DNA of 64,000 nucleotides. It comes from a virus (lineage: Duplodnaviria; Caudoviricetes). Of the stretch, positions 5,001-63,050 are shown piece after piece. The notes beneath the pieces are model-generated. The model was not told where the DNA came from and did no database searches. It worked only from the letters and a program-made list of their open reading frames with translations. The stretch lies in the IMG/VR virus record IMGVR_UViG_3300015214_000001, positions 96,001 through 160,000 of that record, one strand, 5' to 3'. A program made the translations under genes and the position numbers. Position 1 is the stretch's first letter. Every line of letters starts with the position of its first letter.

Positions 5001-5022
5001 AAAACGTGGAGTTCCACGTTTT
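5001..5022. promoter_or_regulatory. 22-bp palindrome AAAACGTGGAGTTCCACGTTTT (copy 1), putative operator
   Basis: Recurs at 14221, 30402, 30886, 50585; here just upstream of TTGTTC-N17-TAATAT. Confidence 0.7.
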
Positions 5023-21667: not shown

Positions 21668-23233
21668 TTAGAAGCTATCCCAACTGGCTTTAAACGCATT
21701 TGAAACCATTGTACGCTCTTTATTATCGTCTCCGATAATTTTTATGCCTTCTTCTTCTGTATATGATGAACGCTTCATATAACCAGTAACGGCATCAATA
21801 TAAGCAGAAAACCCGCCATCTTTTGTTCTGAACAAATATTTAGGGATGTTGGCTTCTAAAATTTGCTTTTCATATTGTTCTGCAAGCACAGTATCAACGC
21901 TGATTGCAGGCATCTTTCCTTGATCTTTTAATTCATGGATAACGTCCAACCACCAATCATGATTTTTAGGCTCTACTTCATCTCCGCGACCAGTGTATTT
22001 ATATCCAAGCAGAGTAACCTTTAAATCACTTTCTTCTGCTTGGGTAAGTAACTCTGCAAATTCTTCACGAGTATGCAACCCCATAACGACATGAATGTTA
22101 ACAAATTGAGATGCTCTCCATCCCGCTGGTTTGATTTTTTCTTCCACTAGCTTAATGGCTTGTGGGGTATCGGCGCTATAAGCAAATGATCCGATTAAAT
22201 CAAGAATTGTTTCTCTTTTCTTGCTATCCTCTAACCACTTCAAATTGCGTGTGGTGAAGTTAGGAATAATCCCCTTACTACGAATGTATTTCAAGATCGG
22301 TATAAAACTAGGGTGGAGTGTCGGCTCACCACCTCCAATGGCAATCTCAAATACCTGATGTTCTGCCATCGCATCAACCAAACTATAAATATCACTTGCT
22401 AATGCGTGACTGCCTTTGCGAGTTGATCCCATGTAACAAAATGGGCAATCATATGGACAATAGTCAGTGATCTTCATATCAACCAGTTCAGGCGCAAATG
22501 CTTTATCTGGAACTAGAGCAGGGTAGTTATTACTATCATATTCTCTAGTGAAATGGTGCAGCAAGCTATCATCATCTTGGAATGAAAAGCTAATCTTTGA
22601 ACCATTGTAAGGGTTAAACAGCGTCCAGTAATTACTGACCTCATCATACCGAGCTATTACGCCATGTGATGGCTCTGATACTGGCATTCGGATATTAGGC
22701 TTACCATTTGTAACATAATCCATATCTCCACCATTATCGTTTCCGCCGATAATATGAACATCAGGACGTAGAACAAGATTTGTTAGCTCTTTGAAAAACT
22801 GCTCATGATAATGTGACGACTTAGACCCAATAGCTTTAGGTAAACTCACCACAGATTGATGGTCAATGTAAGCATCAATCTCGCCATGCTTGTCTCTATC
22901 CAACAACAAATTGAAGGTCTTTTTCATGATTTTATCTTGTTGCTTTTCTGGCAGATGCCTAATAGCTTGATACAAAATAATAGCAAGGTAGTGTTTCTTT
23001 TCTCTGCTATTATCTAAGATAAATTCATCCCAACCAAATTCACCTTCTACGCACTCACCATTCACAATGTCACGATCATATTCAGCGTGTGATCCATTGA
23101 AAATGAGACTATGGCTTGATGAGCTATTGGTCGCAAATCCTGACTGCCTGATATTGTGTATCAAGATATGTATATTTTCATTGACAACTTGTTTTGAAAT
23201 TTCTTGTTCGATGCTCACTCTGAAATGCTCCAT
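21668..23233 (-). CDS. radical SAM protein with N-terminal GFATNSSS domain
   Basis: CPYDCPFC, GGGEPTLH, NFTT. Confidence 0.9.
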   Translation of the reverse strand: MEHFRVSIEQEISKQVVNENIHILIHNIRQSGFATNSSSSHSLIFNGSHAEYDRDIVNGECVEGEFGWDEFILDNSREKKHYLAIILYQAIRHLPEKQQDKIMKKTFNLLLDRDKHGEIDAYIDHQSVVSLPKAIGSKSSHYHEQFFKELTNLVLRPDVHIIGGNDNGGDMDYVTNGKPNIRMPVSEPSHGVIARYDEVSNYWTLFNPYNGSKISFSFQDDDSLLHHFTREYDSNNYPALVPDKAFAPELVDMKITDYCPYDCPFCYMGSTRKGSHALASDIYSLVDAMAEHQVFEIAIGGGEPTLHPSFIPILKYIRSKGIIPNFTTRNLKWLEDSKKRETILDLIGSFAYSADTPQAIKLVEEKIKPAGWRASQFVNIHVVMGLHTREEFAELLTQAEESDLKVTLLGYKYTGRGDEVEPKNHDWWLDVIHELKDQGKMPAISVDTVLAEQYEKQILEANIPKYLFRTKDGGFSAYIDAVTGYMKRSSYTEEEGIKIIGDDNKERTMVSNAFKASWDSF

Positions 23234-23324
23234 TATTTTCGGATGATTAATTATAGCAAGAACAACTATTTAAAGATAGGTTAAATACGCTATAATAAGT
23301 TAAATCACTTCAACAGGAGATATT

Positions 23325-23843
23325 ATGTTTACTAATAAAACGCTAAAATATATAGGCTCAACATTGAGAACTAAAAACTACTCATCTTATACCCCTATCG
23401 GGGTTGCTGTTAAAGAGGCGGATCGGTTATACGCAGATTTAAAGTCTCGAACAGAACGGTTAATAAAAAAGCTCACATCAGACCTTTCATTAATAGAAGA
23501 TCATTATGATATGAATGAGTTATACAAAATGTATGGGGACTTAGATCGCACATTAAATCGCATTCGATATGTCGAATCGCCATTAACGATGTTTAACCCT
23601 ACTCGGCAATTTACACGTCTTTATGATGACCTAATTCAAGCTGTTGATTTGTATCAAGGAAACCCCAAACAGCGTGCTGAAAGTGTCCATGTCATGTTAC
23701 TGCGAGCAGCCGATCAGAACAGACCTGAGTTATTACTAGATACAGCATTGAAGCATAGCAACAATTCGCCCGTCAATATTGCACGCGAAATTAGTAAACG
23801 CTTGAAAGATTATGAAAAACAATATCAGCGGGAATACTTATAG
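23325..23843 (+). CDS. helical protein, leader-motif paralog 1
   Basis: AGGAG SD; starts MFTNKTLKYIG. Confidence 0.75.
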   Translation: MFTNKTLKYIGSTLRTKNYSSYTPIGVAVKEADRLYADLKSRTERLIKKLTSDLSLIEDHYDMNELYKMYGDLDRTLNRIRYVESPLTMFNPTRQFTRLYDDLIQAVDLYQGNPKQRAESVHVMLLRAADQNRPELLLDTALKHSNNSPVNIAREISKRLKDYEKQYQREYL

Positions 23844-24139
23844 CTATAGATAAACAGGGCAGGGTAAAGTTATCTGTGTGGTTTAGCGAAATCGCACTTA
23901 TTATTGTTTATAGCTTTTACCCTTATGGTTTGTTGATGATGAAACCCCGCATGAGAAGAAATGGCGATTTCAAATATAGCGAATTAAACCCCTATTTTGT
24001 AGTTACTTGGTATACTGCCAATTATACCAAGTAACTTTTATATGTAATATTGGAGCAGGGCAAGCAAAAATAAAAATAATCTCTTGAGTAACTGATATAA
24101 TTCATAATGATTGGCGGTCTCATATTATCGGAGATTAGA

Positions 24140-24653
24140 ATGAGAATTACTAAACGAACAATGAAGTTAATAGGACGAAATGGAGATGGCAGTAAAAGCT
24201 ACTTTAAAGCGGTTGATATAACGCGGTTAATTGGAGAGATGGAACGCAACGTATCTACACAACGACAAGATATGAGAATCCTTGCATCCATTATATGGAA
24301 TACGCCTGAATACGCATATAATGGGAAGGCACGCATTCACATCAATGATGCGCTTAGTAGTATTAATGACATCTTGCAAAAAGTAAAAAAACTTACCCAC
24401 CCCAACGCATGGGCAAATTCTACGCAATCGACTAGACACACATCATAAAGTGTTATTGAGCCTGATTAGTCAATTCGATAGAACGCTGGTGCGTCAAGTT
24501 GATACAACAAGCAATGCAGTTATCAAAGCCCTAGATAGCAATAGTCGAACGGCCTTAAATGCAATATTATTAGAGAATAAATTAATGAGTCCTTACCAAA
24601 TAGCTTTCCATTGGTTAAGAGAATTAAAAGATTACGAACGCGAGACAAAATAG
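24140..24653 (+). pseudogene. leader-motif paralog 2, split by a frameshift at A7 (24385-24391)
   Basis: Starts MRITKRTMKLIG; removing one A joins the two ORFs (QKVKNLPTP...SPYQIAFHWLRELKDYE), matching paralogs 1 and 3. Confidence 0.65.
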
Positions 24654-24685
24654 TTTAAAATTATAAACAAGAGGTTTTTATAATT

Positions 24686-26239
24686 ATGAAAATCACAAGA
24701 AAAACACTTAAGTATGTTGGTAAAGCGTCTTTGTTGGCAAAAGAAGCAGCGCAGAACTGGGATAGGCTGGCCAACAATATTTTGTCGCAATCCGAGAACA
24801 TAGAGCGCAAGATAAACTCTGATCCAGCGTATCAACAGTCACGTCAGTTGGCTGGCGACATCCAAGCATTATATAGACCGTTGGTGCAAGAATTGAATAA
24901 GCTATCCAATCTTGAAAGACCACCCGTTATCAAAAAGCGTGGCTTTTCCCCGCGTGGTGGATCATTTATGGATATTCAACAACAATATAATTTCCTGCAA
25001 AGTTGGTCTTTAAAAATAGCTAGTCGGCTAAGTGGTTATGAAAAATCACTTATAACAAAATTGTCAAATCCATCTATTAGCCAGAGAGACATAGAAACTG
25101 TACTATATCAAGAAGGATCACCCTATTTCATAGCAACTCAATTTTTGCACCACTTAGAACACTACTGGAAACTGATAAAGAATGAAATGCACCTGTTACA
25201 AAATAGATCATCTCGTTCTATCAATAGCATAAAGAACCGACAAGGGTTTGATGATACCTTAAATGCCTTGTATAAAGTACAACAAAAAGGTGATGCGCTG
25301 GTTAATAGTATTAGACGAAAAGCAAATCCCGCATATATGCACTCTAGTGATTTTAAGCGAGATATGCAAGCATATATGAATATTTACAAGGAAGGTTTAC
25401 GTGCGATAGATAGTATGGTGCGTCATAAAACAGGTGATGATCGCATTGACCAAGCAGTGGCGCGATATTTCAATAATTTCAGCATAAATGAAATCACTCG
25501 ATACAGGGATGCTTGGTTACGCGATGCTAATTCTATTGATCCTGATGCTAAAGACAAAGATACCTGGAATATGATTGATAGAATTGTTAGAAACATGGAC
25601 AATCAAATAACATTTGATGCGGCGATACAAGAGATCATTGACTTAAGTAGTCATGTTCGTAATCGTCAACGGCGGGACTACTATCGTTCTCTTTCAAATG
25701 TTAAAAGAGGTCGCTATAGAAAGCGTAATGATAAGCGGATTAATGACCTAAAGGTCATGGTTAGTAACTTCAAGAAAACGCTAAATGATGTTACACGCAG
25801 AGTAAATAACATCAACACTAATGCTCAACGAGATAAATCATACTTGGCAGGCGAAAATCTTAGGCGAGATATATTTGATACGATAGGCGTTGCTCATGGT
25901 GGGTTGAATAACATACTGAATAACTCGAAGTTATATCACTTAGATGACAATAGCTATGGTAGAGATCACGTTGCACTAGATATTGACGACGCTATACGCT
26001 TTTACATGGAAGATACATCTAAGGGTAATGTAGATAGATTTATAGCTAAGACGCGAAATTCACACGATTCTGGGAAATTATCTATGCGTGATTTTAGCAA
26101 TGAACTATATGAATTGCTTTTTGATAGAATAGAATACATATATACAGCATTGCTTAGGTCTGAACAAGAAGTTAGAAATGAGGAAGCGGAAGCGCAAAAT
26201 TTATATGATAGGATGCACGGAAAAACTTCTGGAAGATGA
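24686..26239 (+). CDS. leader-motif paralog 3, about three tandem helical domains
   Basis: Starts MKITRKTLKYVG; first domain resembles paralog 1; repeated DPAY/NPAY/DKSY segments. Confidence 0.75.
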   Translation: MKITRKTLKYVGKASLLAKEAAQNWDRLANNILSQSENIERKINSDPAYQQSRQLAGDIQALYRPLVQELNKLSNLERPPVIKKRGFSPRGGSFMDIQQQYNFLQSWSLKIASRLSGYEKSLITKLSNPSISQRDIETVLYQEGSPYFIATQFLHHLEHYWKLIKNEMHLLQNRSSRSINSIKNRQGFDDTLNALYKVQQKGDALVNSIRRKANPAYMHSSDFKRDMQAYMNIYKEGLRAIDSMVRHKTGDDRIDQAVARYFNNFSINEITRYRDAWLRDANSIDPDAKDKDTWNMIDRIVRNMDNQITFDAAIQEIIDLSSHVRNRQRRDYYRSLSNVKRGRYRKRNDKRINDLKVMVSNFKKTLNDVTRRVNNINTNAQRDKSYLAGENLRRDIFDTIGVAHGGLNNILNNSKLYHLDDNSYGRDHVALDIDDAIRFYMEDTSKGNVDRFIAKTRNSHDSGKLSMRDFSNELYELLFDRIEYIYTALLRSEQEVRNEEAEAQNLYDRMHGKTSGR

Positions 26240-27227: not shown

Positions 27228-27303
27228 CCACGTTGAAGCACGCTGTTTATCTCTTGTATTGAAGATCAATAGCGTGCTTTATTGTATATTCAGGAGCTTT
27301 ACG

Positions 27304-28747
27304 TTGACAAATAACCCTCAATATGAAGATTTTCTGCGTTCTAAGAAACGTTATACAATAGCAAGAGGCTTTGAGGTTGATCCAGCACGACTAAACCCGA
27401 TGTTAAAACCATTCCAGCGAGACATTGTTCAATGGGCTTTATTGTTGGGGAAATCGGCTATTTTTGCTGCGGTTGGTCTTGGTAAAACATTTATGCAACT
27501 TGATTGGTCACACCGCGTAGCAAGTCAATTCGGGGGGGGGTGTTTTAATACTAGCACCTCTAGGTGTAGCGCATCAGACGACAGAAGAAGGTAAGAAGTT
27601 TGGGTATCATATACCTTATGTCCAAGATCAAGATGAGTATGATAGGTGTGGTAGCTTAGTTGCTATTACGAATTATGATCGAGTTGATAACTTTTTGCCT
27701 CATAAGTTTATCGGTGTTGTGCTAGACGAATCCTCAATTCTTAAGAATTACTCAGGATCAACCAAGAACAAAATCATTGATATGTTTAAAGACTTACCTT
27801 ACAAGTTATGTTGCTCTGCCACCCCTGCACCAAATGACCACGTAGAATTAGGAAACCACGCTGAATTTTTAGATATTATGAGTAGTCAGAGCATGTTGGC
27901 TACATATTTCATCAATGACCGCAGTAAAACAGGTGTGTATCGGCTCAAAAACCACGCTAGAGATGCCTTTTGGGAATGGTTGACATCGTGGGCTGTTTGT
28001 ATTCGCAAGCCATCTGACTTAGGAGAAGGTTATAGCGATGAAGGTTACATATTGCCTGAATTGCGTTATGTAGATCACCATATCGGCTTTAATGATATGA
28101 CCATTCAGGAAGCATGGGCAGAAGGAAAATTACTTCCTGATACAGCTCCTAGTAGCTCAGAACTGGGACGAGTTAAGCGAAAAACAATTCAAGAGCGCGT
28201 GGATGTAACAAAGAGCATTGTTGAATCTTATGGCAATAAGCAGTCGATTATCATTTGGTGCTTATTGAATGACGAACAGGACGCACTAGAAAAAGCCCTA
28301 CCCCACGCCATATCGGTTCGTGGCAGTGATAAGCCACAAGAGAAGATTAGGAAGTTGCGCGAATTTAAGGATGGCAACTGTCCAATCATATCTAAGACAT
28401 CTATTGTTGGCGCAGGCATGAATTGGCAACACGCACCAATAACAATTTTTGTGAGTAGCAATTATAGTTTTGAAAGCCAACATCAGGCTATTGGTAGAAA
28501 TTACCGATATGGGCAAACCGAGAATGTAGATGTTCATATCATTTATTCAGAAGCAGAAGGTAATGTATTCACTGCATTAGCTCAAAAGCAAGAGCAATTT
28601 AATGCAATGCAAGAAGAAATGACAACAGCAATGCGTCGATATGGTTTGTTTAGAAGTTCTAAGACAGCACCTATTTATAATCCGCTTGGCGATCAAGAAA
28701 TGATAATTCCCTCTTGGTTGACATCACATATTGAATTTGCAGAATAA
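27304..28747 (+). CDS. SF2 (SNF2-like) helicase, frameshifted at G9 (27532-27540)
   Basis: Walker A GLGKT before the tract; VLILAP, DESS, SATP, GMNWQ, QAIGRNYRYGQ after it in another frame; G8 restores one ORF. Confidence 0.85.
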
Positions 28748-30885: not shown

Positions 30886-30907
30886 AAAACGTGGAACTCC
30901 ACGTTTT
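30886..30907. promoter_or_regulatory. 22-bp palindrome copy (reverse orientation); degenerate copy at 30402-30423
   Basis: AAAACGTGGAACTCCACGTTTT just upstream of TTGTCT-N16-TACAAT. Confidence 0.7.
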
Positions 30908-54395: not shown

Positions 54396-57380
54396 CTAGT
54401 TCATGCCGATTTTCAAGACTTTCAACGCGGCTGGTTGCCAGACTTGACCGCCGACACGCGCACGAGCAAGGAACAACACTTGATTTCTCATTGCATAGTA
54501 GCTGTCATCGAAGCGTTGGATAGAGAATTCAACGCGCTTGCCAATTAAATAACCTCTTTGCAAGTCACCGAAGATAATCGGGAAGTTGCCTTCTACTGCG
54601 TCATCAGCCCATTCATTGTACACAATAGGGCGACCATATAAGAGTTCAGGCATTTGATGGCCATACATGCCGCTGTTGCGATCAAAGAATAAAGGATCGC
54701 CATTAGCATTCTTTAATTCCATCAATTGACGACCAGTATCTTGGCTCATGTACCACTTTGCATTTTTTCTATAACCCGCTGGTAAATGCTGGTACATCCT
54801 GACTAGCGCATCAGTGTTGGTCAACCCATAAATACTGCCTGATGGAACATAACCGCCGACTGTAGCAGTGCCTAGTGACTCATGACCAGTAACTTGCTCG
54901 TTAGTAACAATACCTTGAGGTTTACCTTGCCCATCACCACTCCAGACAAAAGTGTCATAATCGACTGCCATAGCTTCCGCAAACGTTTGACTAATGTAGT
55001 CTTGCGTGTTGAAGCTCGCGTCCTCTAGCATGTTATTTGACACAACGTCATGTAACATTGCTAAGTGGATAGGAAGTTTCAACTGCGAAAACGTGCTGGA
55101 TTCTGTGCTATGAACTAATGTTGGATCAGCAACTTGCTCATCGCCTGGCCAGCGAACAACAGCGCTACCAGCACGACGCGCATCAGTAGTGATAACATTA
55201 GGCTGGATTAACGTATCGGACGTTGTAGTACGAGTGCGACATTCTGCTGCCATCGCGGTAGCAGCCATGATGTTGGTATTCAACTCATCTGCCCAATCGG
55301 GAGGAACAGCAAAACCACCAGATGGATCAACGCTACCAAAATAGCCCTTAACTGCTGGATCGCCTAACCAAGAAGTACCACGAACATCAGAGTTATTCAT
55401 TGTGCCTTTAGCGTATAAAATACGCTTTTCTGTTTCGCTCATGGGGTTTAATCCACCGCGCATCCATGATTTAAACGCACGAGTATAAGCGCCTTCACGG
55501 TCTGCCTCATCCGTGATACTTCCAATTCTTGAGAACCCACCGCGCTGATTTGGAGCTTCTGCTTGTTCAGCTTTAATTGCGCGTTGTCTCCAATATTCAG
55601 CGCTATTTGTGTCAACGCTTTTAGCAGCTTTAGCACGATAACGCTTTTCGCCTAATACATCGCTCAAGATGGCTTCATCTTCATCAGACGCAAACCCTTC
55701 TTGTTGCTTTAAGCGTTTCAACGTCTTGCGGTAAGCAGCGCGACGCACAGAAGCGATAGCTTCATCTTCATCGTCACTTCTATAGCCGCCATAAGATGCA
55801 ACAGCTTCTTCGAGATCATCTTCATCAAAATCTTCTTCGTCGTCAAAATCTTCTTCAATCACGTCAATATCCTCATCACGCCATGCACGCCTTTGTGCAT
55901 TCTTGCGACGCATTGCGGCACGCTTAGAAGCAAGATTTTCAACATCTTCCACTGTAGCGCCGTCAATTTCAATGTCAGCTGGTTCAATGACATCTGTTTG
56001 TGTTTTACGACGTAACGCAGAGCGCTTTCCATTCGCATATGCTTTTTCAGCAATCAGTTCAACTAATGCGGCATCATCTGTGCGAGCAGCTTCATTGTCA
56101 TAGCGTAATTCTTCAATTTCGCTACGTAATGCAGATTGGTCATTACGAATTTCATCCAGTGAAGTCAAGATTGCCTCATTAACATCAGCGTTTCTGCGTG
56201 CATAACCACGTCTTGACCTACCATAGCGTTTTTCACTGGCAAAATCGCCTAATGGTTCTTCATCCCCAACGCCACCGATAGTAGATTCGTAATCCCCCTC
56301 AATAGTCGCTTCTAAGTCATTTGTCGCAGGAGCTAATTGCTTTGCGCGTCTCAACGCTTTTTGGCGAATTGCGCGGTAATACTTGTTGAATTCTTCGTCA
56401 AATTCTTCTTCCAGATCAACATCTTTTGAACGTGAAACGCTACGGAAGCGACGAACCATTTCTTTTTCAGCTAAATCAGATGCCAGCGCTTCGATTTCTT
56501 CTTCTACTTCAACTGACATGATTGCTTCTAATTCTTGCGCTTCTTGATTTTTCCTACTACGTGCTGAACGATTAATCTTCATTACAGAACTCTCCTGTGT
56601 CATTTCATCTTCAAGGCCAGCTAATGTTTCCTCATTCTCGGATTGCATTTTTGCCAGCGTTTCGTTAATTGTTTCTTGATAAGCATCTTTAGTAGGCCGA
56701 TGCGGGCCTGTTCTTTTAGAAGATTTACTGTCCTGTACTCTAACCCTATTCTCGAGTCCTCTTACAAAGTCAATATCTTCTTTAAGTACCGATTTAAAGG
56801 CGCGATATGATACTGATGGAACAAATGTTCTATTAGATTTCATCGCACGCACAGCCGTCTTACTAGGCTGTGCTGGTGTAGGGGTAATACTTCCCTCAAT
56901 TAATGGCCATACGGCAATTTCGCCACTATCTGCGATTTTAACAAGGTGATCGACACTTCCTGAACTCCATCCGAAATCAGCAGATTTAACCATGTCATAC
57001 ACAGCCCGAGAATACCTATCTCTTAAATCTAGCTGTGCAGTAACCCACAAACCCAACTCATCAGTTACTACAGACTTGATCTTGCCAATCTTTCGTAACC
57101 CCGCCTCACCATCTAAGCCATGATGATACAAGACTGGTCTTTCTACAAACCAATCAAGGCAAAACTCGGTATTAGGGGTGAAATATTCGCCTTGCAAATC
57201 TGTGTCTTGAGGCGAACCCCACGAAACAAGATACCCTTCTACGAAGCCATAATTGCCATCTTCTGATACATATGACTTAATTGCCTTTGTATCACCCGAT
57301 TTATGTATCAAATTTGCTTGGATTGTTTGCATGTTATCTTTAGTCTTGTTATTTTCAGTCATTATGATATGCTCATGCAA
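54396..57380 (-). CDS. prohead protease + scaffold + HK97-fold major capsid fusion
   Basis: N-terminal DLQGEYF..YHHG..WSSG..EGSITPTPA (S78-like protease); charged helical middle; GGFAVP..GDGQGKPQGI..GRPIV..FGD..RVGG capsid domain. Confidence 0.92.
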   Translation of the reverse strand: MHEHIIMTENNKTKDNMQTIQANLIHKSGDTKAIKSYVSEDGNYGFVEGYLVSWGSPQDTDLQGEYFTPNTEFCLDWFVERPVLYHHGLDGEAGLRKIGKIKSVVTDELGLWVTAQLDLRDRYSRAVYDMVKSADFGWSSGSVDHLVKIADSGEIAVWPLIEGSITPTPAQPSKTAVRAMKSNRTFVPSVSYRAFKSVLKEDIDFVRGLENRVRVQDSKSSKRTGPHRPTKDAYQETINETLAKMQSENEETLAGLEDEMTQESSVMKINRSARSRKNQEAQELEAIMSVEVEEEIEALASDLAEKEMVRRFRSVSRSKDVDLEEEFDEEFNKYYRAIRQKALRRAKQLAPATNDLEATIEGDYESTIGGVGDEEPLGDFASEKRYGRSRRGYARRNADVNEAILTSLDEIRNDQSALRSEIEELRYDNEAARTDDAALVELIAEKAYANGKRSALRRKTQTDVIEPADIEIDGATVEDVENLASKRAAMRRKNAQRRAWRDEDIDVIEEDFDDEEDFDEDDLEEAVASYGGYRSDDEDEAIASVRRAAYRKTLKRLKQQEGFASDEDEAILSDVLGEKRYRAKAAKSVDTNSAEYWRQRAIKAEQAEAPNQRGGFSRIGSITDEADREGAYTRAFKSWMRGGLNPMSETEKRILYAKGTMNNSDVRGTSWLGDPAVKGYFGSVDPSGGFAVPPDWADELNTNIMAATAMAAECRTRTTTSDTLIQPNVITTDARRAGSAVVRWPGDEQVADPTLVHSTESSTFSQLKLPIHLAMLHDVVSNNMLEDASFNTQDYISQTFAEAMAVDYDTFVWSGDGQGKPQGIVTNEQVTGHESLGTATVGGYVPSGSIYGLTNTDALVRMYQHLPAGYRKNAKWYMSQDTGRQLMELKNANGDPLFFDRNSGMYGHQMPELLYGRPIVYNEWADDAVEGNFPIIFGDLQRGYLIGKRVEFSIQRFDDSYYAMRNQVLFLARARVGGQVWQPAALKVLKIGMN

Positions 57381-59459: not shown

Positions 59460-62400
59460 TTAACCTCCTAACAGGTCTTGTTTTATCTTTGCAAATATGC
59501 CTTCAATATCTGGGGCGCTTTCGACCAATGCCGACTTCACTTTATCAGCTAATACCTCGTCTATATGAAGTGTCTCAAAGCGTAAACCCTTGTTAATGCC
59601 ATGTTTCAGCGTTGCTTTACGCCACTTGTTCAGTTCGGCAAGTGCTTTTCGAGTTGTCTCAACATCTTTAATATCAAAAAGTCTTATTTGTCCATCATAC
59701 TTGCCACTTGATATATTATCTTTGATTCGTTGCTCGCTCGATGAAACATCGTTAACAAATTCTAGCAAATCTGCTTGCATTGGTGGCGGCAATTGATTTA
59801 CATCAAAGCCTTGCTGATCTTGGATGTATCGGCTTAGTTTATGGAGGAGATTACTTCGTTCATACCCAATATAAAGCGCGTTCAGTTCTCTTTTTTCAAC
59901 ATCGCTCATCCACTTTTCAGACATATCTTTAACATCATCTTTAACAAATGATTTGCCACTATAATCCTCAAGCATAGTTAAAAATGGGACTTCATTTACA
60001 ACTTCATAATCCCCCCTGCTGACATATAACCCCATAGGACGAATAACCATCGGTGTTTCATGTCGCCTTACAAATGTATTTGGCGGGGCATATGCTAATG
60101 TAATATGTGGTGTAAAATTGCTAATTTTGCTATGTTGTGACAATGGTAAATTTAATGCCTGCATCCGCGTGATGACAGATGCTTGTAATGCTTTTAGATC
60201 ATCGGTTAATTCTACCGACGCATATATAACAGTAGCATCTGGGTTATCGAAAATATCAATATGAGACACGTAGATATTTAATGGAACTAATTCACTTGGC
60301 AATAACCCCATTAGGTGTTTCTCTGCATCACCATCAGCACTTAAGGCATACCCAAGTGTTATATGGAATGTGTCAGGTCTTTGCCATTCGATAGCAGTAT
60401 CATCACCTAATTCTGCGCTTAATTGGTCTTGTAGTTCAATCAAGCGTTCTTCATCACCAATCCACAATGATAAATATAGTTCTTGATTTTCTGACGTGCC
60501 GTCAGTTTGAGTTGCTATATTCTCGTAATAACTGCCGTTATCTGTATCAATATCCAACGTTTGTTCATCTAGCCATTCTTCAAACTCATCTGTTACACCT
60601 TCCACTTCATCGGCTACAGGTAGTGCGCTAGATGGCATAATATCTACCTCTCCACCATATAAAGGTGATAATGGCAATGGATCATTATCGCTGTTGTCAA
60701 TGACTAGTGTTTCCTCTGCTGCGCCGATTGGCCCATCAGTTCTAAGTGTTTGATTCCCCAAATAATCATTAAATGTCAATTGGCCGTCTGGTGAACCACC
60801 TAATGTTTTTTCTAAAAGCATATCTAACTCATCATCACGATTGCCTTGATGAGTAAAGCCACTTGGTGGGGTATCTGTTGGCTCAAGAGTTTCATCTGGA
60901 ATAGCGCGAACGCCATCATTGGCTTCTTCGATATTATCTTTAGACATCAATTCTTGAGCATAAGCATCATCTAACACATTAGCCACGCGCTTATATCCTG
61001 TTGTGGTATTATCTACAGGAATAGATAGTGCATCTTGAACGATGTCGCGCTTTACTAAATCATTATTGTAATACTCTAGTATTCTTTCGACACGTTGAGT
61101 ATCATGGTTCATCAGTTTATCTAACTTGACGCGAACTTCATCCGCATAACCATCAATGATATTGTCATCTGGGGGCAATCCTAGCTCTTGTCTTACTTCA
61201 CTACGTTTTAATATATTACCGCCCCATAATTCCATCACATTGCTGCGCTGTTCACCCACTTCATCTATGTAACCATCAACACCCTTTGGCCCTTCTTCTA
61301 TGTCTAATAGCGAGCGAGCTTCACCACGTTTAATAAGTTTTTCTCGCCATAAATCTTTAACTTGCTCGGCAAAGTCAGCGCCTCGTTCTAATTCTGATTG
61401 ATAACCATCTTCAAACTCTCTACCTTCTGGTACTGGCAAATTTAGTGCGCGTAGTGTCTGCGATTTTAAGGCTAAATCGCTATTCCAAGCATCTAAGGCA
61501 AATTGCTTTGATTGTTCAAGGTCTGAGCGATAGCCATCTGGCATACCAGGAGGCAACTCATGACCAAGCATCCTTAAAACTTCGCTTTTTAAGGCAAGGT
61601 CATTTGCCCATAACCAATCGGCATAAGTTTGTTGGCGCTGTGTAGGTAAATTTCCCGATGAGACAATCCTATCTAAAGGGGTTAATACACCGTCGTGAAG
61701 ATACCACCCATCAAGCTCTTTGACTGGTGGCATCTTCATCCGCACTCTAGCTTCATTGTAAGCCTGTAATTGACTATCAAAGAGGCTTACTTCAACACCA
61801 GCCCTATCGTCGCGATCAGCATCAAGTTCCGATATTTCACTTAAATCTATGACTAGCCGCATCCCATCGCGCAAGCCAAAGTCTCTAGCTAATGCTTCGA
61901 CGTAGCGTTCAGCTAGGGGGATAACGGTGTCATCCCATGCCCTTTTAATTAAGTCGGCATGTCGATCATGAGAACCACCAGAAGGCGTAACTATCAACTC
62001 CCTATCTAAGCCGATAGTTGTCGCAATGCCTTCTAAGGCTGTATCGTTCAAATCAGGAGCGCCAATCTCGCTGGCGCTAATTCCTACTTGCTCAATGCTT
62101 AATTTTTTATCTGTTACCATAGCACGCAAACTGGCATCCATGCCTTGCCAGTTGTCCTCAAATGCACGCTTTAATTTCAGCACATCCGAGTCTGTCATCA
62201 ACATAGAATCTTCTTCGCCTGATGACACTAAAATAAATGGCATCGCGCCACGAGTAAAATACTCTGCCATCCACTGAGCGATAGCAGAGTTAGCTACTGC
62301 TTCATGGATACAGACAGAAACCAATGATGTTCCACGAACGGGGTTAGCTGGATTCCATCGTGTAACATAAATAAATTCTTTACGTGTTAAGTAGGTTCGG

Positions 62401-63050
62401 TCTTTTAGAATGTCGCTTGTGGTGTTATAGCGATTAACGTTAACGCCATCAATGTCACCATAGATAGTCGTTATGTTCGCATCCCACATCGGCTTATCTA
62501 TCACATAAATACCAGCTACAGCGCCATCCTTGTAAGAATAAATCGGATTGCCTTCTCGATCTGCTATAACAGCGCGATTAGTTTTTACTTTATAGGCGAC
62601 AGAAGCTCCATAGATTGATTCGTTCAGCCAAGTTCTTGACAAATACTCAGCGCCATCTTTGCTGAGTATTTTATTTAAGCGGTCAGTTTCAGGTAAACGC
62701 ACCCATTGACCATCTTTTTCAATCTCAGCGACAATGTTTACACGCCTGATTAAATTCGCAACGCGGTTAATAGCCGCGTGCAAATAGACAGACGTTAAAT
62801 ATGCTGTTAAAACTTGGTTTTCAGAATAACCCAAGTTTCCAGCAGAGGCATTAATAAATGAACTAATGTGAGAGCTAAAAACATCAAAGCTCTTTATAGA
62901 TTGAGACGGGTCTATCAGTTTTATACCCCCGCCGCGATTGTCTGTATTATTCTGGTACAGAGCAGGGGAGTTAGGTTTTGAATAAGGCTTCTGAGAAGGC
63001 TTATTATTATCAAATTGTTGCACCATTGAGGTGATCGCTTTTATAACCAT
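59460..63050 (-). CDS. portal protein with tandem repeats and fused 2H phosphoesterase
   Basis: Portal motifs (YLHAAINRVA, NP..GTS, YF..GAMP, NEAR..MPP); two HxT motifs FHITLGY and PHITLAY. Confidence 0.9.
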   Translation of the reverse strand: MVIKAITSMVQQFDNNKPSQKPYSKPNSPALYQNNTDNRGGGIKLIDPSQSIKSFDVFSSHISSFINASAGNLGYSENQVLTAYLTSVYLHAAINRVANLIRRVNIVAEIEKDGQWVRLPETDRLNKILSKDGAEYLSRTWLNESIYGASVAYKVKTNRAVIADREGNPIYSYKDGAVAGIYVIDKPMWDANITTIYGDIDGVNVNRYNTTSDILKDRTYLTRKEFIYVTRWNPANPVRGTSLVSVCIHEAVANSAIAQWMAEYFTRGAMPFILVSSGEEDSMLMTDSDVLKLKRAFEDNWQGMDASLRAMVTDKKLSIEQVGISASEIGAPDLNDTALEGIATTIGLDRELIVTPSGGSHDRHADLIKRAWDDTVIPLAERYVEALARDFGLRDGMRLVIDLSEISELDADRDDRAGVEVSLFDSQLQAYNEARVRMKMPPVKELDGWYLHDGVLTPLDRIVSSGNLPTQRQQTYADWLWANDLALKSEVLRMLGHELPPGMPDGYRSDLEQSKQFALDAWNSDLALKSQTLRALNLPVPEGREFEDGYQSELERGADFAEQVKDLWREKLIKRGEARSLLDIEEGPKGVDGYIDEVGEQRSNVMELWGGNILKRSEVRQELGLPPDDNIIDGYADEVRVKLDKLMNHDTQRVERILEYYNNDLVKRDIVQDALSIPVDNTTTGYKRVANVLDDAYAQELMSKDNIEEANDGVRAIPDETLEPTDTPPSGFTHQGNRDDELDMLLEKTLGGSPDGQLTFNDYLGNQTLRTDGPIGAAEETLVIDNSDNDPLPLSPLYGGEVDIMPSSALPVADEVEGVTDEFEEWLDEQTLDIDTDNGSYYENIATQTDGTSENQELYLSLWIGDEERLIELQDQLSAELGDDTAIEWQRPDTFHITLGYALSADGDAEKHLMGLLPSELVPLNIYVSHIDIFDNPDATVIYASVELTDDLKALQASVITRMQALNLPLSQHSKISNFTPHITLAYAPPNTFVRRHETPMVIRPMGLYVSRGDYEVVNEVPFLTMLEDYSGKSFVKDDVKDMSEKWMSDVEKRELNALYIGYERSNLLHKLSRYIQDQQGFDVNQLPPPMQADLLEFVNDVSSSEQRIKDNISSGKYDGQIRLFDIKDVETTRKALAELNKWRKATLKHGINKGLRFETLHIDEVLADKVKSALVESAPDIEGIFAKIKQDLLGG

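Follow-up and report, generated by a model that had tools for sequence, protein, structure and literature searches.

Introduction

Proteins that phages carry in their heads and inject into the host include anti-restriction and host-takeover factors, and they are hard to recognize from sequence. In phage T4, the internal proteins bear at their N-terminus a capsid-targeting sequence (CTS) of about 10 residues, which is portable (Mullaney and Black, 1996, as described in PMC9958956). In giant phages such as those of the SPN3US/phiKZ group, ejection proteins carry N-terminal propeptides and end up inside the head (PMC7411985, PMC5694885). Encapsulins load their cargo by means of native targeting peptides such as PLTVGSLRRGG and NTGGDLGIRK (PMC7925596). 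Here we describe a ten-residue motif, hereafter the tag, which heads six proteins (A to F) of an uncultivated tailed jumbo phage (Duplodnaviria; Caudoviricetes), IMG/VR record IMGVR_UViG_3300015214_000001. The genes of A, B and C occupy positions 23,325 to 26,239 of a stretch of 64,000 nucleotides (the window), which covers bases 96,001-160,000 of the single 208,458-bp contig of this phage. Positions are those of the window unless the genome is named.

The record is classed in IMG/VR as a complete virus with direct terminal repeats. The conserved proteins of the phage show at most 26-40% identity to any recorded phage protein, and no close relative was found in IMG/VR, JGI metagenomes or GTDB genomes; the tag belongs to a phage lineage without cultured relatives. 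An earlier note, made from the letters of the window alone, had regarded the common leader of A, B and C as a capsid-targeting signal cut by the prohead protease, and the three proteins as packaged and injected. A portable tag of this kind would mark packaged proteins and could serve, as the T4 CTS has done, to load foreign proteins into capsids.

A ten-residue motif at the N-terminus of six proteins

The three co-oriented open reading frames (ORFs) A, B and C (Table 1) begin with the leaders MFTNKTLKYIG (A), MRITKRTMKLIG (B) and MKITRKTLKYVG (C). In a local-pair alignment, A, B and residues 1-~180 of C represent one diverged module of ~170 amino acids (aa). Identity between pairs is 6/11, 8/11 and 6/13 in the leader (46-73%), as compared with 24/151, 33/144 and 29/134 outside it (16-23%), so that the common N-terminal leader pointed out in the earlier note is clearly the most conserved part of these paralogues. 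The second motif that the note had reported, SP..IA...L..Y, is likewise found in all three proteins, as SPxxIAxxx(L/S)xxLxxY near the C-terminus of the module. Pairwise BLASTP similarities are weak but real (A-C, E 1.6e-5; A against B merged across its frame break, 33% over 42 aa, E 0.002), and A, B and C are diverged tandem paralogues. Because identical leader residues are encoded mostly by different codons, and because Rfam gave no match for a conserved RNA element in the A/B/C locus, the constraint acts on the peptide; a cause at the nucleotide level was rejected by inspection of the codons.

When the genome is translated in six frames, the strict leader of the earlier note is met with only three times, in A, B and C. 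A scoring matrix was then built from these three leaders alone and applied to every position of the ~270 predicted proteins (60,511 positions); matrix and shuffles had been settled before any use was made of D, E and F. The best three non-self matches were LTAKTLKLMG in D (30.0), LTQKTLELAG in F (26.3) and LTQATKKILG in E (22.0), with background scores beginning at 20.7, and each lies among the first residues of its protein. When the proteome was shuffled 300 times, the top score attained 30 in one shuffle, and the runner-up stayed below 26.3 in all of them. A six-frame scan of the genome with a matrix made from all six tags returned the six at 27-34, the next matches (23.8 or less) being in junk ORFs. 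Similarly, the pattern T..T.K[LIVMFY][LIVM]G has exactly five occurrences over six frames, all at tagged N-termini, and in an all-against-all comparison of N-termini this motif was the only one common across families in the genome. The whole-genome scan that the earlier note had called for has extended the carriers from A, B and C to proteins of unrelated families.

D and E are paralogous (E 6e-10) and have kept the motif at an overall identity of 27-33%; their bodies are beta-rich. F matches the KTSC domain (PF13619, E 3.9e-16, 59 bits against a Pfam gathering cut-off of 25), of which it is the only copy in the genome. When the tags are removed, similarity remains only within A-B-C and within D-E. 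The six proteins headed by the ten-residue motif belong to three families whose bodies are unrelated, and its presence in D/E and F supports the portability of a putative address tag. The 108-aa gene that follows D was tried as a further family member and rejected (hhalign E 0.22).

The tag has the consensus phi-T-x-x-T-x-(K/E)-phi-phi-G (phi, hydrophobic), with two Thr and one Gly invariant and in fixed spacing. It begins at residue 2 in A, 3 in B, C and F, 5 in E and 9 in D, and is followed by a polar stretch rich in S, T, N, K and G in A, B, D, E and F. From a helical wheel, we infer that the tag may form about three turns of an amphipathic helix, whose one face would hold the hydrophobic positions (I/L, L, Y/L and I/V) together with both T residues and whose opposite face would hold K/R, and that the invariant Gly would end or cap it; models of low confidence, of C and of D with E (AlphaFold2 pLDDT, the predicted local distance difference test, 44 and 50, respectively), also place a helix at the tag. 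Such a layout would be that of a portable docking peptide, bringing varied cargo to one shared partner. A Tat or Sec signal was rejected by inspection, as the tag has no hydrophobic core.

The six tagged proteins are small or modular, and hydrophilic. All of them are basic, with isoelectric points (pI) of 9.1-10.0, while the median of the proteome is 5.6 and 19% of its proteins lie above 9. The KTSC domain, present in F, has been called DNA-binding (PMC9503650).

The capsid polyprotein

The head genes of this phage include a polyprotein of prohead protease, scaffold and major capsid protein (Table 1). Its N-terminal 200 aa match the S78 protease family (PF04586) with 21.0 bits, at the cut-off of that family, and residues 688-991 match Phage_capsid (PF05065, E 1e-47), which has the HK97 fold. 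The middle is a highly charged, scaffold-like stretch of ~450 aa; at residues ~200-640 (window 55470-56760, minus strand), acidic runs alternate with basic clusters (..SKR..RRK..) and the sequence looks repetitive.

The motifs that the earlier note had listed in the polyprotein (KAIKS, RAMKS, RAFKS twice, KAAKS and KTLKR) are present as it stated. The motif [KR]-A-phi-K-S is found at residues 32, 178, 193 and 634. The first of these lies ahead of the protease domain, the next two closely follow it and the last precedes the capsid domain by ~50 residues; KAAKS at residue 584 makes a fifth site of this kind. In its strict form, [KR]A[LMIVF]KS, the motif occurs six times in the proteome of ~62,900 aa, and four of these six are in the polyprotein, where 0.09 would be expected. 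In phage HK97, gp5 is cleaved at a Lys-Ser bond, and by analogy the polyprotein sites are plausible self-processing sites, cut after Lys.

Possible functions of the tag

Our tentative interpretation, put forward at clearly less than even confidence, is that the tag directs proteins to the inside of the assembling head. The tag would dock on the scaffold part of the polyprotein or on the inner surface of the shell; the basic, probably DNA-binding proteins that carry it would be packaged together with the genome, and would then enter the host along with the phage DNA. This reading is favoured because the cargo is basic and probably DNA-binding, because the paralogues are tandem and fast-evolving, as in the internal or ejected head proteins known from large phages (SPN3US, PMC7411985; T4, PMC9958956), and D and E lie beside packaging genes, because the polyprotein offers a built-in scaffold for docking, and because the T4 CTS, the ejection proteins of giant phages and the encapsulins provide precedents. 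D and E are located 0.1-1.5 kb upstream of the genes for the small and large terminase, in a long block on the minus strand that also contains the portal and capsid genes.

Several observations weigh against loading into the head. A, B, C and F sit amid genes of DNA metabolism and modification, not head genes, and the promoter of every tagged gene is an ordinary one, sigma-70-like or extended -10, of a type that precedes many different genes across this genome. Only six proteins carry the tag, and they have no detectable relatives in the databases searched. The tags do not have the [KR]-A-phi-K-S motif of the polyprotein, nor is any protease site evident in them, their likeness to the encapsulin targeting peptides is loose, and an exposed tag cannot be made out in the structure models, which are too poor for this.

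A more specific form of this interpretation is rather doubtful, namely that an uncleaved N-terminal amphipathic tag, nearer to the encapsulin peptides than to the T4 CTS, loads several unrelated DNA-binding proteins into an HK97-type polyprotein capsid. If it were correct, the set of packaged and injected proteins of such phages could be read from sequence. In general, if loading into the head is true, the principle would extend beyond T4-like and phiKZ-like phages, to a different system of head maturation.

Among the other explanations, a serious rival, which appears unlikely although less so than those that follow, is that the tag is an N-terminal degron read by host ClpXP or a similar AAA+ protease, giving its carriers a short, timed life as for the O protein of phage lambda. 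The N-motif-1 of ClpX is exemplified by TNTAKI (lambda O), STAKL (Dps) and SQNTLKV (sigma-S), and its N-motif-2 by MRLTS-5-V (IscR) and MKLPI-5-A (IscS) (PMC9775585); the lambda O tag reads TNTAKILNFGR (PMC12723719). The core T-L/M-K-Y/L of A, B, C and D fits T-phi-K-phi, while the starts MRITK (B), MKITR (C) and MKLTQ (F) fit Met-basic-phi-T-x. In addition, the tag is N-terminal with a linker after it, and A/B/C and F are in non-structural gene clusters. However, the ClpX motifs are low in information, so that many N-termini fit them, while the tag is over-constrained for such a role, with two invariant Thr, an invariant Gly and fixed spacing. Moreover, the basic position is occupied by Glu in F and the hydrophobic one by Lys in E, and the motif of D begins only at residue 9.

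It is quite unlikely that the tag docks the six proteins on some other common partner, such as a chaperone, a component of the replisome or clamp, or the nucleoid or RNA polymerase of the host. In favour of this, the tag is built like a portable short linear motif and its carriers are basic and probably bind DNA; F stands at the head of an operon that includes a dUTPase gene, and A/B/C stand beside helicase and methylase genes. However, no test pointed to a candidate partner, and the tag, judged by eye, does not fit the clamp-binding consensus, as Gln is not conserved. Should the tag prove to be a degron or another docking motif, it would still define a co-regulated set of six ORFan proteins.

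The exact mechanism of the earlier note, with the leader as a capsid-targeting signal at which the S78 prohead protease cuts in [KR]-[TA]-phi-K, is very unlikely. It is true that A, B, C and D contain K/R-T-L/M-K, that four of the six strict genome-wide matches of the related [KR]-A-phi-K-S motif stand in the polyprotein, at domain borders, and that HK97 offers the Lys-Ser precedent. Nevertheless, the core is absent from E (ATKK) and F (KTLE); at position P3 the tags have Thr and the polyprotein sites Ala; and the residue after the core (P1') is Y, L or I in the tags, none of which has Ser there, as opposed to Ser in all five polyprotein sites. The loose 4-mer that unites tags and polyprotein sites occurs 28 times in the proteome and was defined after the fact to fit both. 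For these reasons, cleavage of the tag is rated as unsupported, and there is no evidence that the tag is clipped off. The proposed common address tag has gained support in its portability, now seen also in D/E and F, while its protease-signal mechanism has been weakened.

An equally low probability is given to the absence of any common function, in which case the leader of A/B/C would reflect paralogue conservation and the matches in D/E and F would be due to chance. The motif is short, it is present in only two additional independent families, its consensus was refined once D, E and F had been seen, and an unrelated 78-aa ORF in IMG/VR starts with MKLTNKTLEELG. Against chance, the A/B/C-only matrix and its shuffles predate the use of D, E and F; the three top matches are all N-terminal, which has a probability of ~0.003 for two independent families; and D and E have retained the motif in otherwise strongly diverged sequences.

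Finally, it is highly improbable that the tag is a recognition or modification site of an enzyme such as the radical S-adenosylmethionine (SAM) protein encoded divergently from A, for although the two genes are 91 bp apart with promoters back-to-back and the C-terminus of C has a sub-threshold match to a precursor of ribosomally synthesized and post-translationally modified peptides (RiPPs), NF041705, D, E and F are 34-47 kb distant from the enzyme, its nearest relative (gp146 of Salmonella phage Arash, 31% identity) has no tagged genes within 7 kb, it gave only generic core matches in NCBIfam with no RiPP recognition element (RRE) or SPASM domain, and the match in C is a charged helical stretch.

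Gene organization and neighbouring features

The window contains genes for a DNA polymerase, a portal protein, a large capsid protein, tail-fibre paralogues and the radical-SAM protein, with the small and large terminase genes just outside it. The coordinates of the tagged genes and of the features related to them are collected in Table 1.

Table 1. Tagged genes A to F and associated features (window positions unless the genome or a locus is given).
Feature	Position	Strand	Description
Radical-SAM neighbour	21668..23233	-	521 aa; unknown N-terminal domain; PF04055, E 4e-12
Promoter-like element before A	23269-23296		TTTAAA-16-TATAAT
Gene A	23325..23843	+	172 aa; pI 9.3; ORFan; AGGAG Shine-Dalgarno
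Tag of A	23328-23357	+	Residues 2-11
C-terminal motif of A	23766..23813	+	SPVNIAREISKRLKDY; regular expression SP..IA...[LS]..L..Y, alignment
Terminator-like hairpin between A and B	24001..24036	+	14-bp stem, T-rich tail after it
Extended -10 before B	24093		TGATATAAT
Gene B, N-terminal part	24140..24448	+	102 aa up to the stop; GGAG 6 nt ahead of ATG 24140
Tag of B	24146-24175	+	Residues 3-12
A7 run	24385..24391	+	Start of the zone with both B frames open; likeliest site of the +1 frame break
Gene B, C-terminal part (+1 frame)	24387..24653	+	Open from 24387; called ORF 24450-24653
C-terminal motif of B	24588-24635	+	SPYQIAFHWLRELKDY; +1 frame
Gene C	24686..26239	+	517 aa; pI 9.6; residues 1-~180, A/B-type module
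Tag of C	24692-24721	+
C-terminal motif of the module of C	25118-25165	+	SPYFIATQFLHHLEHY
Prohead protease (S78)-scaffold-major capsid polyprotein	54396..57380	-	994 aa
D	genome 166,286-166,771 (L001:7286-7771)	-	161 aa
E	L001:7817-8284 (D and E together, genome 166.3-167.3 kb)	-	155 aa
F	genome 85,407-85,910 (L002:7407-7910)	-	167 aa; tag, linker, KTSC domain

Gene A has no match in Pfam, PHROG or NCBIfam, and is probably its own transcription unit because of the terminator-like hairpin that separates it from B. The A-B spacer (23844-24106, 260 nt) holds a 52-aa ORF (23876-24034), which is overlapped by hairpins and by the stem at 24001-24036; the spacer folds no better than its shuffles (z -1.7), and is therefore probably non-coding.

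The true ATG of gene B is at 24140, where it stands behind a GGAG, and not at 24107. As a correction to the earlier note, B is not a single open frame, as there is a stop at 24446-24448 and the C-terminal third, with the SP..IA motif, lies in the +1 frame. The frame break is located between the A7 run and 24448. If read across the A-run, B would have ~170 aa, matching the size of A; both assemblies of this phage have the truncated product on record. A +1 change of frame is needed, whereas slippage on the run as A_AAA_AAA would rather be -1, and a stable structure was not found downstream of it (z -0.8). Nothing, therefore, marks the break as programmed, and programmed frameshifting was rejected.

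In gene C, the module is followed by ~340 aa of unique sequence, helical in models of low confidence. The three or so domain copies ascribed to it were not borne out: the A/B/C profile against residues 176-517 gave an hhalign E of 0.21 (probability 0.3%), BLAST and family hidden Markov model (HMM) self-matches were not significant, and the sole hint of triplication is the length (517 = 3 x 172, approximately). Nor was the helical character claimed for the three proteins confirmed, as the models have low confidence: in addition to the AlphaFold2 value given above for C, the ESM Atlas confidence is 0.70 for C and 0.46 for A. The NF041705 match (YhhA-family cyclophane RiPP precursor) covers 26150-26221 (residues 488-511) with 20.6 bits against a cut-off of 36, and this match in the charged helical C-terminus is probably noise, although a radical-SAM gene adjoins the cluster.

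As for regulatory signals, the extended -10 sequence TGnTAYAAT was considered as a timing marker and rejected, since it is found before many different genes. CCACGTTTTT was likewise rejected as a promoter class, being half of a palindromic, terminator-like element. This element, AAAAACGTGGA-NN-TCCACGTTTTT, stands between genes on both strands, at window positions 5009, 14229, 30894-30900 and 50593 and at ~20 more places in the genome; its appearance suggests a bidirectional terminator or else a palindrome to which a protein binds.

Three observations concern other genes of the phage. A G9 tract at 27533-27541 splits a SNF2-type helicase into the ORFs 27259-27594 and 27695-28747. The portal protein (1,196 aa, window 59460-63050, minus strand) has a C-terminal domain of the 2'-5' RNA ligase/LigT-like phosphoesterase type at residues ~868-993 (PF13563, E 1e-10; also PF10469 and PF02834), a fusion which, judging by these matches, would put an enzyme domain at the portal. 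Lastly, four tandem ~130-aa paralogues outside the window (genome ~23.1-24.9 kb) have a common N-terminus of the type (I/V)RVxAENLVDLVF; the set is a paralogue family of the ordinary kind and does not represent a tag across families.

Relatives of A and C were sought widely. Self-matches or nothing were returned by tblastn against 50,697 phage records (and likewise by blastn of the region), by word-seeded HMMER on 5.8 billion proteins and by a search of IMG/VR. In a full HMMER profile search, run on 1.84 billion representatives, the sole extra match was P0004, which was rejected as a spurious hit to a fibre-repeat protein. There was no sequence match in the PDB, and template-modelling (TM) scores against the ESM Atlas, on poor models, did not exceed 0.56. 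Searches for relatives of D and F found none, and synteny searches through the radical-SAM neighbour and the large terminase led only to loci that are distant or short and have no tags. In IMG/VR, two matches were obtained with a degenerate DNA pattern of the tag, one of them out of frame; the other is the lone 78-aa ORF mentioned above (L010:319-555, contig 3300024344_000420), whose start MKLTNKTLEELGF resembles the tag of F. No other tag-like N-terminus is present on that 11.6-kb contig.

Comparison with known systems

The T4 CTS resembles the tag in being an N-terminal peptide of ~10 residues on otherwise different small basic proteins of one phage, and in its portability between cargo domains, which is matched here by six proteins in three families. 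In contrast, the T4 tag ends in a gp21 site, (L/I)-x-E, and is removed, whereas no such site is evident here; the T4 protease is of the gp21 type (S77), while here an HK97-type S78 protease is fused to scaffold and capsid. In addition, the tag sequences are unrelated, and the packaging of the proteins tagged here is putative.

With the ejection and inner-body proteins of the SPN3US/phiKZ group (PMC7411985, PMC5694885), the tagged proteins have in common tandem, rapidly diverging paralogues. Those phages, however, use T4-type proteases with cleavage at A/S/G-x-E, and their virions have been analysed by mass spectrometry; the present phage is unrelated to them, and its tagged proteins have no detectable relatives.

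The comparison with ClpX N-degrons rests on the N-terminal position, the T-phi-K-phi core and the Met-basic-phi-T start, with lambda O as a phage precedent. However, the degron patterns are loose, while the spacing of the phage tag is fixed and its two Thr and its Gly are invariant; the pattern is also broken by two of the six tags. Processing by HK97-type S78 proteases finds its counterpart in the polyprotein, with [KR]-A-phi-K-S at domain borders and a cut after Lys, and not in the tags, which do not have that motif.

Finally, the cargo peptides of encapsulins share with the tag the plan of a short terminal peptide and a flexible linker by which unrelated cargo is docked inside an HK97-fold shell; by eye, there is also a loose likeness of sequence, phi-T-x-x-S/T-L-K/R...G. 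The encapsulin peptides differ in being usually C-terminal and in having a G-S-L motif, which is not found in any of the phage tags, and the shell here is a PF05065 Phage_capsid protein, in a genome with portal and terminase, rather than a member of the encapsulin family. The tag sequence, the phage lineage and the HK97-type polyprotein context are new.

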